Shown here one piece after another: positions 26,189 to 54,938 of a stretch of 64,000 nt of DNA. Where the stretch lies: the sequence record MN850585.1. One strand, written 5' to 3'. Both the position numbers and the translations under genes were made by a program. A model generated the notes under the pieces. It searched no databases, had not been told where the DNA came from, and saw only the letters and a list, made by a program, of their open reading frames with translations. The DNA comes from Escherichia phage skuden. How positions within the stretch are numbered: the first letter of the stretch is position 1; every line of letters starts with the position of its first letter.

Positions 26189-26222
26189 AAGGCTCCCGTA
26201 AAAAGGAGCCTTAAAATTTTAT
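26189..26222. terminator. bidirectional hairpin terminator between convergent genes
   Basis: aaaaaaGGCTCCcgtaaaaaGGAGCCttaaaattttatttt. Confidence 0.6.
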
Positions 26223-26590
26223 TTTTCAGTATTCTTTGTGTTCTTTTCAGTAATAGCTTGGAGGGCTGATACTGATTGAGCCAGATTGTTAACACTATCA
26301 GAGAATTTATCAAGAGTCTTAGTAAGTTTTGCGTTCTCTCCCTTAACATTCTCTAACTGAACTTTCTGGTTCTCCATCCCTAGCTGAATCAGTCTCATGT
26401 CAGACTGTAAATCACGAATAGCTGAATAGTTACTTTTGGAATAATTATCTAGCTGCTGTAACTTTGTTGTGACAGACACTTCTTGCTTACCACTTGAAAC
26501 TTGCATGGTGGTATACATCCCAATAACACTAAAAATACCAACAACAATTGCACCAATATTGTTTTTAAAAGCTTCCTCTAGCCACTTCAT
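26219..26590 (-). CDS. membrane-anchored coiled-coil protein (spanin-like candidate)
   Basis: N-terminal TM segment IGAIVVGIFSVIGMYTT then coiled coil; 123 aa. Confidence 0.35.
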   Translation of the reverse strand: MKWLEEAFKNNIGAIVVGIFSVIGMYTTMQVSSGKQEVSVTTKLQQLDNYSKSNYSAIRDLQSDMRLIQLGMENQKVQLENVKGENAKLTKTLDKFSDSVNNLAQSVSALQAITEKNTKNTEK

Positions 26591-26785
26591 TTATTTCTCC
26601 CCCTTAAAAGCTTTTTCTAAGTTGTCTACGAACTCATCATCGATAGGCGTGTCTGTTTTACTCGCAAGATATCTTGCAAGCCTAAAGAACACTTTCTCAA
26701 TCATGTATTCACTCAGAAGGGATAAAATGAGTTTCCAGAAGAAGCTACCTAGATTTTTTAGAAGAATTGCTAGGATTGTAGGCAT
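26591..26785 (-). CDS. small membrane protein (holin candidate)
   Basis: 64 aa, hydrophobic N-terminus, charged C-terminus. Confidence 0.3.
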   Translation of the reverse strand: MPTILAILLKNLGSFFWKLILSLLSEYMIEKVFFRLARYLASKTDTPIDDEFVDNLEKAFKGEK

Positions 26786-26864: not shown

Positions 26865-29210
26865 TTAAGCAGTTCTCACCCAAGCCATTAACTTGTAGAA
26901 CTGGTTAGTAACACTAAATGCTGAACCAGAACCTGTACCACCAGTGTTACCACTAACTGTATGGCTGTGAGCACCAATACCAACACTGTGAGCATGGTTA
27001 CCAGCAGAAGCGGCAGTACCACTTACAGAGTGGGTGTGAGCACCGTTAGCATCGGTGTAACCCGGTCCTACACCAATACTACCACCACCACCACCAGAGT
27101 AGTGTGTAGAGTTCTGACCAATCCACGAAATGGAATGGTTGTGGTTACCAGCAGATGAAGTAGAGCCACTTACAGAGTGAGCGTGAGCACCAGTCGTGTT
27201 AGTGTTTTTTGTTCCGTAGTCAAAAGATGAAGTGGTAGCAGAAAAACTGTGAGTGTGTGAAGGCAAGTTCCCAACAGCTAACGTCACAGAGTCTGAACCA
27301 CCAGTTGTAGCAACATCTGAACCATTTGCTGCTGCAATTCTGATAGTTCTACCAACACCATTGTTGAGGTACGTCCAAGTTAGACCAGGCAGTGCTGTAT
27401 TAGGGTTAACATTACTGTTAAACCACGTTACAATACCTACTGGATAGATTTTATTAAGGTCTGTAGAGTCACTTACTGCCTGTGCAATCTTCTGGTCAGT
27501 TTCAGTTTTAGTGTATGCACCAATATCTGAAGGGGTTGGTTTAAATGCCGTTGAATACAACTGTGCCTCTCCAACATATTCTCCATCTGACCCATAAGCA
27601 TATGTGAAGACATCAAGACCTTTAGACCCATATGTAAAAGCAATACCTCTGGCATGAGCAATGCCAGCAGAGTGTGCTACATGGATGGCTAAATCTTTCA
27701 GACCCTGCTCAATATCGTTATTTCTTACAAACCCTGAATAATCTTTATTGAATGACGCTGTGTCCTCCAACCTATTAGTTGTCCTTACCATTAAAGATTG
27801 GTTTAGCAGTTTTGTTTTTAAGAAATATCTAGCATCTAAGTTAGACCAATCAGAAGGCTGCACTTGACCAGTGATTTTGACAGTTTTATTCAACAAGAAA
27901 TCATCTTTCATATAAATCGTAGTTGCGGTTCTGTCGTTATGGATAACAAATCTTTCTGGGTTGGATGGTTCCCCATTCCCAATGTACCACCTTCTAACAC
28001 CATCAGCATTATGACCAGCAAAGTATAGCTCTCTGTCTTGTGTAGTATTCTTTAGCTGTAACAATGAGCCATTCTGATTAATAATCTGTGCAATCCTAAA
28101 AGTGTTTACATCACTTAACTTAGCAAGATTGCTCAAAGTTCCTGCTGAGATGTATCTAGAGTCAATGTTAGTCCAATCTGAAGGTTGAACTTGACCAGTG
28201 ATTTTCACAGTCTTAGTAGTGGTAATCACATTTGACAAAGAGATAGTTGTACTCGTGGTGTAGTTATGTAGGTTGACTACAGAATCAGAGTCATCAGTCC
28301 CTAAGTAGAACTTGTTTGTCCCATCAGCCTTCTGCCCCAGCAAGTACAGTCCAGTTGCAGCAGTGGCATTCTTAACGACTAGCACAGCGTTATCTCTGGT
28401 GATATTGAACTCTCCTACAAAATTGTTAATACCCCTGAAGGTGTTATTGCCAACTAGCTGCGCAAATCTCTGATTAGCTGCTGTCTGAGTAAAGTATCTA
28501 GCATCTAAGTTAGAGAAGTCAGAAGGTTGAACCTGTCCAGTAATAGCGAGAGCCTTATTAACAGACACAATTGCACCTAGAGTGATTCTTGAACCTCTGC
28601 TGTTTTCGAGATGAACATCAAGACTTCCTCGAGTTAGATTCCCAACAGCCCAAGTTTTATCATTATTGGCATTTCGACCTACAATAGCGGAGTATGCCTC
28701 ACTTGCACCCGCAGGGGTCTTCAGTGTCAACTGCTCACCATTTGCTACGACACTCTGTTTAGCTTGGAATGAGTTTGTAACAGCAAGTCTTGCATATCTT
28801 GCATCATTCTCTTCATTAGTTCTCATCCCAAGTTCATTAGGACTTGGCTTATTAAGAGTATGATAAACAGTTGCAGACCTTGAAGCATCTGCAATAGTTA
28901 GTTTAAGACCATTTGCATTGATTTTAAAAGCCTTTAAAACATCCCCCATAGTAATCTCAGAAGAACCTGTAGGGTCAAATACTGCCTTACCACCATAAAG
29001 TAACTTGACAATTCCTAAGTCACCCGTCATAGTGCTACCAGCAATCTGGACAAATCTTTCTAGTTTAAAAGACGCTAAGAAGTCTTGATAGGTCATTCGA
29101 CGGTCTTCATCACCCAGCATTTCAGGTCTCTTTTTAACCCTGATATGAAGGAGGTCGTCTGAACGAATTGTATCAATTGAGTTTAATTCACTCAACTTGT
29201 AATCTGCCAT
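26865..29210 (-). CDS. tail fibre protein (long)
   Basis: 781 aa; three internal repeats KITGQVQPSD(W/F)(S/T)N(L/I)D(A/S)RY; C-terminal Gly/Ser-rich region with six H-x-H motifs. Confidence 0.75.
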   Translation of the reverse strand: MADYKLSELNSIDTIRSDDLLHIRVKKRPEMLGDEDRRMTYQDFLASFKLERFVQIAGSTMTGDLGIVKLLYGGKAVFDPTGSSEITMGDVLKAFKINANGLKLTIADASRSATVYHTLNKPSPNELGMRTNEENDARYARLAVTNSFQAKQSVVANGEQLTLKTPAGASEAYSAIVGRNANNDKTWAVGNLTRGSLDVHLENSRGSRITLGAIVSVNKALAITGQVQPSDFSNLDARYFTQTAANQRFAQLVGNNTFRGINNFVGEFNITRDNAVLVVKNATAATGLYLLGQKADGTNKFYLGTDDSDSVVNLHNYTTSTTISLSNVITTTKTVKITGQVQPSDWTNIDSRYISAGTLSNLAKLSDVNTFRIAQIINQNGSLLQLKNTTQDRELYFAGHNADGVRRWYIGNGEPSNPERFVIHNDRTATTIYMKDDFLLNKTVKITGQVQPSDWSNLDARYFLKTKLLNQSLMVRTTNRLEDTASFNKDYSGFVRNNDIEQGLKDLAIHVAHSAGIAHARGIAFTYGSKGLDVFTYAYGSDGEYVGEAQLYSTAFKPTPSDIGAYTKTETDQKIAQAVSDSTDLNKIYPVGIVTWFNSNVNPNTALPGLTWTYLNNGVGRTIRIAAANGSDVATTGGSDSVTLAVGNLPSHTHSFSATTSSFDYGTKNTNTTGAHAHSVSGSTSSAGNHNHSISWIGQNSTHYSGGGGGSIGVGPGYTDANGAHTHSVSGTAASAGNHAHSVGIGAHSHTVSGNTGGTGSGSAFSVTNQFYKLMAWVRTA
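27790..28590 (-). repeat. three tandem repeats of about 300 bp inside the long tail fibre gene
   Basis: Repeated protein segments around the ITGQVQPSD motif; repeated nucleotide blocks containing cagaaggttgaac-tgaccagtgatttt. Confidence 0.6.
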
Positions 29211-29256
29211 TATAAATTTTCCTCTTAAAAGGGGCTATACAGCCCCTGTAAAGAAA

Positions 29257-30405
29257 TTAAGCTGTTCTCTGCCATACATACAATACGAAGGATGGCTGTT
29301 CAACGCTAAATGCTTGACCAGAACCAGTTGTGCCAGTTGTGCCAGAGTGCGAATGCTCACCTGCTCCGGTTACTGTTACTGTTGCTGAGTGGTTGTGGGA
29401 ACCAATTGCAACAGAATGGCTGTGAGCACCAATCCCAACTGTGTGATTATGCGCACCAATTGCTACAGAGTGAGTGTGGTTGTTAGCTGTTGTCAGCGTA
29501 GCTCTTGGGTCATAGCTTGCCCCCTCAACTGATAAACCTCTCCAACCACCATCAGCATAACCACGATTAATGAATGTTGTTTGTGTTAAACCAGCAGCAC
29601 TGGTTGTTCTGTTACCATAGTCATAAGTAGATACAGTCTTTGTTCCATAGTCAAACGTTGTAGTCCCTTTAGTACCGTAGTCAAAAGCACTGATAGAGGC
29701 CGTTGCACCGTGTGTGTGACCACCACCAGTGACGTATACTGAGTGAGTGTGTGCAGGAATATTGTTAACTGTCAGTGCAGTAGTCTGCGAACCAAACGTT
29801 GAACCAACTGGCCTAGAAGCACTATCATAACCTACAAGTGCTCTTCCTTTTGAAACTAACTCCCAAGTACCCCCACAAATTAAATATGTAGAAGGGTTTG
29901 CAGGATTCATAGAGAGATGGATAGTACCTACTGGATAAGAAGCCTGAACAGCCTTGTACAAGTTATTTACTGCTCTTGCTGTAGCATACTTATCTGCATC
30001 CTCATTATAAAGGTTAGATGTCACCCAGTTCTGAACATTACTTAACCCAACCTGTGCCTTAGTGGTGTTGTGTGGGTTGCTCTTATCATCAATATGTTGT
30101 TGAATAAGATTATTAACCTCTTCTGAAGACATAATCTGTAGATTTGCTCTTGCCTCAGCTACATTAACAATGTCTGATAAGTTATTTTCAGCAACTAACT
30201 GGAGAGCATTAATAACGTTATCTAAACCAATTTGTGTCTTAGTAACACCATGAGGGTTATTTCTTAGGCTTGAGTGTGGAGCAAGTAATTGCTCAAGAGT
30301 ACATCTCTTATCCTCGATACCCTGTTTAAGATGGAAGATATCACTAAGGTCAATTGGTAAGGCTGCTTGAGGCAAGGCACTAATTTGAATTTCACCTACT
30401 GCCAT
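29257..30405 (-). CDS. tail fibre protein (second fibre)
   Basis: 382 aa; C-terminal H-x-H repeats and FDYGTK repeats; C-terminus QAFSVEQPSFVLYVWQRTA parallels SAFSVTNQFYKLMAWVRTA of the long fibre. Confidence 0.7.
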   Translation of the reverse strand: MAVGEIQISALPQAALPIDLSDIFHLKQGIEDKRCTLEQLLAPHSSLRNNPHGVTKTQIGLDNVINALQLVAENNLSDIVNVAEARANLQIMSSEEVNNLIQQHIDDKSNPHNTTKAQVGLSNVQNWVTSNLYNEDADKYATARAVNNLYKAVQASYPVGTIHLSMNPANPSTYLICGGTWELVSKGRALVGYDSASRPVGSTFGSQTTALTVNNIPAHTHSVYVTGGGHTHGATASISAFDYGTKGTTTFDYGTKTVSTYDYGNRTTSAAGLTQTTFINRGYADGGWRGLSVEGASYDPRATLTTANNHTHSVAIGAHNHTVGIGAHSHSVAIGSHNHSATVTVTGAGEHSHSGTTGTTGSGQAFSVEQPSFVLYVWQRTA

Positions 30406-30407
30406 TA

Positions 30408-38405
<7,998 letters not shown>

Positions 38406-54854: not shown

Positions 54855-54861
54855 ATTAATT

Positions 54862-54938
54862 TGGTCTCTGTTGGAGGACTTGAACCTCCGGCCTTACCGC
54901 CCCAAACGGAACGCTCTACCAAGCTGAGCTAAACAGAG
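54862..54938 (-). tRNA. tRNA-Pro (anticodon UGG)
   Basis: Acceptor CTCTGTT/AACAGAG, D-arm GCTC/GAGC, anticodon loop TTTGGGG, T-arm GGAGGTTCAAGTCCTCC. Confidence 0.7.

Follow-up and report, generated by a model that had tools for sequence, protein, structure and literature searches.

The sequence of Escherichia phage skuden (MN850585.1; the window, that is, the whole stretch analysed, spans 64,000 nucleotides) carries two neighbouring genes whose products are both rich in His-x-His (HxH) motifs toward the C-terminus, and the longer product also contains internal repeats. This locus raises the question of whether the two proteins share a fibre tip through common descent or through exchange between their genes, and whether the repeats are a place where fibre length varies. 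Two neighbouring minus-strand open reading frames (ORFs) fill positions 26865-30405: the short tail fibre (STF) of 382 amino acids (aa; 29257-30405) and the long tail fibre (LTF) of 781 aa (26865-29210). They very probably form the pair of side fibres on a Felixounavirus virion, both of them homotrimers with metal-binding tips of the T4 gp37 type, the LTF having a shaft of repeated beta domains. This answer draws on what was observed: the homology, the places of the motifs, how the repeats are built, where the mosaic breaks fall and how many copies relatives carry.

The window is a Felixounavirus genome, that of a Felix O1-like myophage. A megablast search with positions 26865-30405 returned 234 phage records, of which nearly all come from phages of Escherichia, Salmonella or Shigella with ~82-98 kb genomes, and Felixounavirus was the genus of every record that was inspected or whose name was telling. 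The architecture is not new: a study of a near-identical phage reported it in 2025, and the skuden proteins are an ordinary Felixounavirus fibre pair. The cryo-electron microscopy study of Bas63 (Escherichia phage JohannRWettstein; Sci Adv 2025) described a 430-Å STF (gp26) and a 630-Å LTF (gp27), with a structurally conserved N-terminal baseplate-binding domain, a gp37-like tip of collar, needle and head, HxH counts of seven (STF) and six (LTF), and a shaft of repeated beta-domains with helix-and-turn linkers (PMC12609058). Bas63 belongs to the same genus as skuden and has the same gene order, HxH counts (7/6) and tip and shaft architecture. The STF was 98% identical to Bas63 gp26 and 99% identical to momo_14; the LTF, which gave a full-length match to phrog_4277, was 73% identical to Bas63 gp27 (~95% in the tip) and 81% identical to the momo protein. 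Added here are a map of cassette breakpoints at the linkers, LTFs with four and five repeat units in uncultured relatives, and a range of 6-11 HxH motifs among STF relatives. The fibre genes and their tip modules are located as follows.

29257-30405, minus strand: STF, ORF of 382 aa, orthologue of Bas63 gp26
29260-29949, minus strand: STF receptor-binding tip module, aa 153-382
29387-29478, minus strand: tandem array of a 27-nucleotide (nt) repeat, 3.4 copies (Tandem Repeats Finder: period 27, 69% matches)
26865-29210, minus strand: LTF, ORF of 781 aa, orthologue of Bas63 gp27, 100% identical to the protein annotated as 'tail fibers protein' in skuden
26868-27458, minus strand: LTF receptor-binding tip module, aa 585-781

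The C-terminal modules of the two fibres

BLASTP with composition adjustment aligned LTF residues 589-781 with STF residues 157-382 at 34% identity (E=1e-16). In a phmmer search against the PDB, both fibres matched the T4 gp37 tip crystal structure 2XGF (LTF, E=4.4e-17; STF, E=3.2e-14), and tblastn with T4 gp37 as the query matched both fibre genes (E=3e-18 and 2e-16). T4 gp37 residues 785-1026 aligned with the LTF at 42% identity and with the STF at 35%; collar, HxH needle and C-terminal return were all alignable. The HxH motifs were found at aa 652, 676, 690, 725, 739 and 748 of the LTF (n=6) and at aa 219, 230, 310, 319, 328, 337 and 351 of the STF (n=7). They occur both where the needle strand runs out and where it runs back, and most of them fall in the same columns as the seven motifs of T4. 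When the T4 motifs are numbered by sequence order, the three-way alignment showed that the LTF kept motifs 1-6 and the STF motifs 1 and 4-7, and that four of the seven are column-invariant in all three proteins. Relative to T4, the STF has thus lost two motifs and gained two (aa 230 and 351). The motif spacing on the descending strand of T4 gp37, 14 and then 9 aa, recurs here, and FDYGTK motifs are common to both systems. The LTF ends in ...GSGSAFSVTNQFYKLMAWVRTA and the STF in ...GSGQAFSVEQPSFVLYVWQRTA; this shared ending, AFSV...W(V/Q)RTA, was aligned with ...IAFNYIVRLA of T4.

Because the region is strongly biased in composition, with HMMER bias terms of 27.1 and 25.7 bits, the likeness might reflect only low complexity in Gly, Ser, Thr and His, without common descent or a common fold. 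The shuffle control refutes this explanation: the tips of the two fibres scored 63.5 bits, as compared with 15.0 +/- 2.2 bits (maximum 23.1) for 200 shuffles of the STF tip, a difference of ~22 standard deviations, so that the similarity does not stem from Gly/Ser/Thr/His richness. The composition-adjusted E-value given above argues in the same direction, and the aligned region also takes in the collar (YPVG...NP.T...W), which is free of such bias, the terminal AFSV...W.RTA, and HxH columns that are invariant across T4, LTF and STF. A purely compositional origin is accordingly given practically no credence. These results support genuine homology between the HxH-rich modules of both fibres and the metal-binding tip of T4 gp37. 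The preliminary description of this locus, made from the sequence alone, had proposed both a common HxH-rich C-terminal module and its likeness to the gp37 tip, and both proposals were borne out by the pairwise alignment of the C-termini and by the alignment of the HxH columns with 2XGF. T4 gp12, by comparison, has a single metal-binding HxH and no array.

The preliminary description had further taken the shared tip as a sign of domain exchange between the two fibres. A recent exchange or gene conversion between the fibre genes of this genome could draw on the short patches of tip-coding DNA for the His boxes and GSG.AFSV; over the His-box patches, the two genes reach 73-86% identity (for example, 37 nt at 86%; repeat families D2-D4). 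Tetart et al. reportedly proposed in 1998 that conserved His boxes act as recombination sites in T-even genes 37/38. Nevertheless, the tips are only 34% identical in aa sequence, no DNA alignment between the two tip-coding regions exceeded 45 nt, and the longest shared exact word was 18 nt, so that no sign of exchange was detected between these regions. LTF tips were compared with STF tips of the Ounavirinae type, and the identity had a median of 33% and a maximum of 51%. The LTF tip proved closer to other fibre tips among the STF search matches (P0196, P0203 and P0209-P0217), to which it was 50-58% identical, as against 34% to its own STF. Several of these fibres go by the name of prophage tail fibre, baseplate protein or microcystin-dependent protein (Klebsiella, Mixta) and carry PF12571, PF03335 or PF03406, Pfam domains that are typical of prophage tail-collar fibres. 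Moreover, a distant syntenic phage whose LTF has five repeat units (described below) showed the same level, ~33%, between its own two fibres. Exchange within this genome is therefore considered highly improbable, and the proposal was not upheld. The low tip identity, the short DNA patches and the closer, apparently prophage-borne tips indicate old common ancestry and point to the LTF and STF tips being old paralogues in a large, horizontally shared tip family.

Topology and metal sites of the tip

The T4 tip consists of a collar, a six-stranded needle with seven HxH motifs described as Fe-coordinating, and a small receptor-contacting head, at which the chain turns back to return to the collar; the same reversal was stated for Bas63 (PMC12609058). 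The trimeric state, chain reversal, metal binding and receptor contact proposed here would be carried over from T4 and Bas63. In the LTF, conservation over 120 cluster representatives was 0.97-1.00 in the collar, fell to its lowest value of 0.48 at aa 701-720 and rose again to 0.96-1.00 at aa 741-781. A minimum in the middle of the module together with a conserved C-terminus is what a doubled-back chain predicts. By alignment, which sets the sub-boundaries, the LTF tip would comprise a collar at ~585-650, an ascending needle with HxH 652/676/690, a head loop at ~696-722 that is much shorter than that of T4 gp37, a descending needle with HxH 725/739/748 and a C-terminal return at 757-781. At the end of the ascending segment, the window has NHNH at 689-692, whereas Bas63 has HHxH at 692-695. 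For the STF, the homology to gp37 and the Bas63 study (PMC12609058) suggest a similar order of collar, needle with seven HxH, head loop at ~aa 258-308 and a C-terminal strand running back to the collar. Thus, the distal variable head is probably located at aa ~690-730 of the LTF and aa ~258-308 of the STF, with the conserved C-terminus back near the collar. The extreme C-terminus had previously been regarded as the fibre tip; the gp37 homology and the variability map point to the mid-module loop as the head instead, with the extreme C-terminus as the probable returning end near the collar.

Each fibre would then be a homotrimer ending in a gp37-type tip, in which the collar is followed by a thin needle of six strands. 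Each chain would run out along the needle, form a small variable head at the host surface and run back, so that the conserved last ~25 residues would lie near the collar and not at the distal end. At each HxH level, six His from three chains may coordinate one octahedral metal ion (iron in T4 gp37), giving six predicted metal sites in the LTF and seven in the STF that would hold the trimer together as a rigid rod. In this phage group, lipopolysaccharide is the most likely host contact. Since tail-fibre tips set host range, it matters which residues form the distal head when the host range of Felix O1-like phages is to be engineered or their receptors predicted.

The needle of the STF differs in length among relatives. 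The 27-nt array encodes 9-aa GIGAHxHxV 'His-box' repeats in the descending needle strand, where the HxH motifs are spaced 9, 9 and 9 aa apart over aa 310-337. Among 73 Ounavirinae-type relatives (P0121-P0193), the HxH count of the STF ranged from 6 to 11 and was 9 in 51 of them; the form with seven motifs, as found in the window, Bas63 and momo, is in the minority. As compared with the family consensus, the window-type STF is without two distal ascending HxH motifs and has a third FDYGTK-like repeat in their place. The STF needle shows the clearer length polymorphism of the two fibres.

Several results weigh against the assignment of the two proteins as homotrimers with gp37-type metal-binding tips. 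The STF was recognised by Pfam Gp10_C (PF21939) at 65.2 bits (cut-off 27) and also matched the T4 gp10 C-terminal domain, whereas the LTF collar, at 25.4 bits, fell just under the same cut-off; yet the LTF collar aligns with the STF and T4 collars, and precomputed PF21939 matches are listed for many LTF relatives. The AlphaFold2 (AF2) monomer model of the STF (62 sequences) had a mean predicted local distance difference test (pLDDT) value of 60 and was confident only over aa 150-200, the collar, and aa 370-382, the C-terminus, leaving the needle and head unresolved, and a Foldseek search with it against the PDB gave only gp10-type collar matches with TM-scores of ~0.15. The monomer model of the full LTF averaged a pLDDT of 49; its confident folding was restricted to the three repeat units, and it did not resolve the tip. 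The fibre density of Bas63 was too weak for side chains (PMC12609058), and metal occupancy has been directly demonstrated in no Felixounavirus fibre. Finally, no homologue of gp34, gp35, gp36 or the gp38-type chaperone was found in the 64-kb window (best tblastn E=0.2 for gp38). The tip is carried by a single-protein fibre here, as against a four-protein fibre in T4. T4 gp37 needs gp38, and with none in the window assembly may differ; the absence of gp38 is an assembly difference and no argument against the homology of the tips.

The lack of a directly observed metal in any Felixounavirus fibre also bears on a different reading of the motifs, in which HxH was kept for a non-metal reason, such as inter-strand packing or as a pH sensor, and the needle of this phage group is metal-free. 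The variable HxH count among STF relatives and the loss from the STF of two motifs retained by both T4 and the LTF would be in keeping with it. It is opposed, however, by the homology to 2XGF, in which the needle HxH motifs are described as Fe-coordinating along its length (PMC12609058), and by the finding that both His of each retained motif are invariant or near-invariant across 62 diverse STF and 65 LTF relatives. In addition, HxH metal sites were modelled in the central spikes of Bas63 (PMC12609058) and Sf14 (PMC11821841). A metal-free needle thus appears very unlikely, and the metal-binding needle is the preferred reading.

Two fibres of comparable build have also been reported for Sf14 (Mooglevirus), whose gp52 and gp53 comprise 391 and 792 aa and measure ~430 and 630 Å; each fibre is apparently a single protein, and the genome contains no homologues of the Mu chaperones (PMC11821841). 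The shorter Sf14 fibre combines a C24-like (T4-tip-like) domain with one like the gp10 C-terminus, and the longer fibre has parts like T7 gp17, Mu gp49 and T4 gp37 (Commun Biol 2025, PMC11821841). Sf14 differs in belonging to another Ounavirinae genus, and the reported identity of its fibres to their Bas63 counterparts is low (51.99%).

The shaft of the long fibre and its variation

The LTF upstream of the tip was divided into the following parts, in which the repeat units were scored with a hidden Markov model (HMM) of the unit built here.

28785-29210, minus strand: LTF conserved N-terminal region, aa 1-142, 89-99% conserved over 120 relatives
28491-28784, minus strand: LTF repeat unit 1, aa 143-240, ending in ITGQVQPSDFSNLDARYF; unit HMM 145.7 bits; PF20744
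28149-28457, minus strand: LTF repeat unit 2, aa 252-354, ending in ITGQVQPSDWTNIDSRYI; unit HMM 151.8 bits
27822-28115, minus strand: LTF repeat unit 3, aa 366-463, ending in ITGQVQPSDWSNLDARYF; unit HMM 158.9 bits
27543-27821, minus strand: fifth shaft domain of the LTF, hypervariable, aa 464-556, predicted all-beta; next comes the linker KPTPSDIGAYTK

The Pfam family PF20744 (gp37_trimer) matched the LTF in three stretches with 165.9 bits (cut-off 21.7; E=2.1e-49), the best of them at aa 382-467 (unit 3), and the unit HMM found exactly three copies (146-159 bits), with no further degenerate copy below E=0.1 in either the LTF or the STF. The ITGQVQPSD motif recurred at aa 223, 337 and 446, with spacings of 114 and 109 aa. 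Pairs of units were 28-41% identical as proteins and 47-56% identical as DNA, and exact matches between them reached 11-20 nt. At the DNA level, the only near-repeat was a core of 68 nt, present as a three-copy direct repeat on the minus strand at 27821-27888 (reference), 28148-28215 (82%) and 28490-28557 (75%). When the three cores were read codon by codon, synonymous positions differed (ATC/ATC/ATT, GGT/GGT/GGA, CAA/CAA/CAG and others), which indicates that the DNA repeat reflects protein constraint and not homogenisation. The triplicated segment of ~100 aa with the ITGQVQPSD motif that had been described earlier therefore stands as three PF20744 units, with near-repeat DNA confined to the 68-nt core; the first unit extends to 28784, past the span of about 27790-28590 once assigned to the repeats.

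In the AF2 monomer of the LTF, the units were predicted to be all-beta with short helices between them, at block pLDDT values of ~60-88 (61-88 for unit 1). The profile of the unit matched the pyramid domain of T7 gp17 (T7 residues 368-436; 4A0T, 7BOZ; E=2.6e-4 to 5.8e-4) and, weakly, Mu protein S (5YVQ; E=0.079). In T7 the pyramid occurs once, below the tip domain, whereas here it would be serially repeated along the shaft. The best fold matches of the LTF model in the PDB were to the T4 gp34 rod (4UXG, 5NXH and 4UXE; Foldseek E=3.5e-5 to 7.5e-5), with TM-scores of ~0.1 and a low-confidence monomer model as the query. The unit HMM gave nothing significant against T4 gp34, gp35, gp36, gp37 or gp38, and the resemblance to gp34 is thus structural only. 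Both the gp34 and the T7 gp17 resemblances are already in the literature (PMC12609058, PMC11821841).

Five beta-rich shaft domains are seen in the published structure for the Bas63 orthologue (PMC12609058), and the three repeats are best regarded as the subset of these five that can be detected by sequence. The conserved aa 1-142 appear to comprise the baseplate-binding domain, a role taken from the Bas63 study (PMC12609058), the first shaft domain and the first linker (KPSPNELG...DARYA). A likeness between the N-termini of the two fibres (EDRRMT in one and EDKRCT in the other) was tried and rejected as not significant, its score being reached by 17 of 200 shuffles; this agrees with the remark of the Bas63 authors that the baseplate-binding domains are alike in structure and not in sequence (PMC12609058). 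In the fifth shaft domain, strands were predicted with low confidence at aa 474-548, and a separate PHROGs fibre family, phrog_8378, matched aa 481-569. The LTF shaft would consist of beta-rich trimeric domains, three recognisably repeated and two diverged, separated by short 'helix-and-turn' linkers such as ITGQVQPSDxxNxDxRY.

Comparison with Bas63 and momo revealed where the shaft differs between phages. Nucleotide identity dropped from at least 90% to 31-71% in replaced domain bodies and returned to at least 90% over most of each linker. The body of unit 1 was replaced with respect to both phages (38-56%), whereas the body of unit 2 was replaced with respect to Bas63 (40-63%) and kept with respect to momo (93-100%). 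The fifth domain was 31-60% identical to that of Bas63 and 38-71% to that of momo; it could not be aligned among the three phages, and the momo version is 62 aa longer. In units 1 and 2 and the fifth domain, Bas63 therefore carries other cassettes (31-63%). The content of the shaft thus appears to vary by cassette replacement with crossovers at conserved linkers: linkers conserved in DNA between phages would serve as crossover points, and shaft domains and the head loop would be swapped as cassettes.

The repeats had also been put forward as a site of recombinational length variation. As an active site of unequal recombination, they would vary in copy number among isolates and so tune the length of the fibre. 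However, exactly three units were found in all of the 120 nearest LTF cluster representatives (at least 69% identity), whose lengths were 774-795 aa except for five of 841-844 aa, which also had three units. The momo protein is one of these five long forms, and its extra 62 aa lie in the fifth domain, with no extra unit. The limited matches among the three units (exact words of 11-20 nt, 47-56% identity in DNA, diverged synonymous sites) likewise argue against active recombination, and the Bas63 study found no variable repeat number among 18 species of the International Committee on Taxonomy of Viruses (PMC12609058).

Unit numbers other than three were confined to distant relatives from metagenomes. 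When 1.84 billion representatives were searched with a profile, 104 proteins reached E<=0.001, among which five full-length proteins and one fragment had E<=1e-28; the full-length proteins had 5, 4, 3, 3 and 3 units. The five-unit protein (P0241; 1015 aa) is encoded at 6001-9048 of contig L004 (Logan contig SRR22802239_169; 77 kb), which has the full Felixounavirus-type gene order and an STF of its own with nine HxH motifs. Units 3 and 5 of this protein are 63% identical, consistent with an old duplication. The four-unit protein (P0242; 901 aa) starts at the residue aligned with M31 of the LTF. These two proteins are what speaks for unequal recombination. By tblastn, no close homologue of either was found in isolated phages, the best identities being 49% to P0241 and 44% to P0242. 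Copy-number variation among isolates was thus not confirmed, and an active site of unequal recombination seems unlikely; the part of the claim that holds is a change in unit number, to four or five, on a long evolutionary scale. The four- and five-unit forms extend the Bas63 picture of an invariable repeat number.

The preferred reading of the shaft remains that of cassettes joined at the linkers. In a more far-reaching form, the LTF shaft would be a cassette system with crossover joints at the linkers, replacement of domains and rare changes in unit number (3, 4, 5), in which the hypervariable shaft domains, especially the fifth (aa 464-556), would be under diversifying selection because they either bind a secondary surface ligand or are themselves targets of a host defence, instead of being inert spacers. 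This is a tentative proposal, with a chance well short of even. The Bas63 authors regard host recognition and escape from defence as open possibilities for the variable domains (PMC12609058).

Gene neighbourhood

On the coding strand, the fibre genes are preceded by genes for a Baseplate_J protein and a DUF2612-like wedge protein and by an ORF of 100 aa; they are followed by two small ORFs and a two-way stem-loop terminator, beyond which lie the convergent genes for thymidylate synthase and DHFR. The order of baseplate J, wedge, 100-aa ORF, STF, LTF, small ORFs and convergent thyA and DHFR around the fibre pair was common to the window and the annotations of Bas63 and momo. The minor features next to the fibre genes are as follows.

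30408-30710, minus strand: conserved ORF of 100 aa directly upstream of the STF; phrog_4141 (unknown function)
26591-26785, minus strand: ORF of 64 aa directly downstream of the LTF, with a hydrophobic N-terminus
26219-26590, minus strand: ORF of 123 aa, with an N-terminal hydrophobic segment, the rest coiled-coil-like
26189-26212, both strands: stem-loop terminator, 24 nt, GC-rich

No Pfam match was obtained for the 100-aa ORF. The Sf14 gene at the equivalent place, just ahead of the shorter fibre, bears the label 'Homolog of T4 gp11?', and mass spectrometry did not detect its product (PMC11821841). The homologue of the 64-aa ORF in contig L004 carries PF26925 (Phage_PM2_Gpl). The homologue of the 123-aa ORF is annotated as 'holin' in momo, and its PHROGs family (phrog_4038) is of unknown function. 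The order of fibre and then holin is reminiscent of T4 37-38-t, yet it is without a gp38 homologue here. The terminator lies between the end of the plus-strand thymidylate synthase gene (26180) and the end of the minus-strand 123-aa ORF (26219).

Elsewhere in the window, 25 tRNA genes were found on the minus strand at 50108-54938; they cover most amino acids, and tRNA-Met and tRNA-Gln are each present twice. A tRNA gene cluster is typical of Felix O1-like phages.

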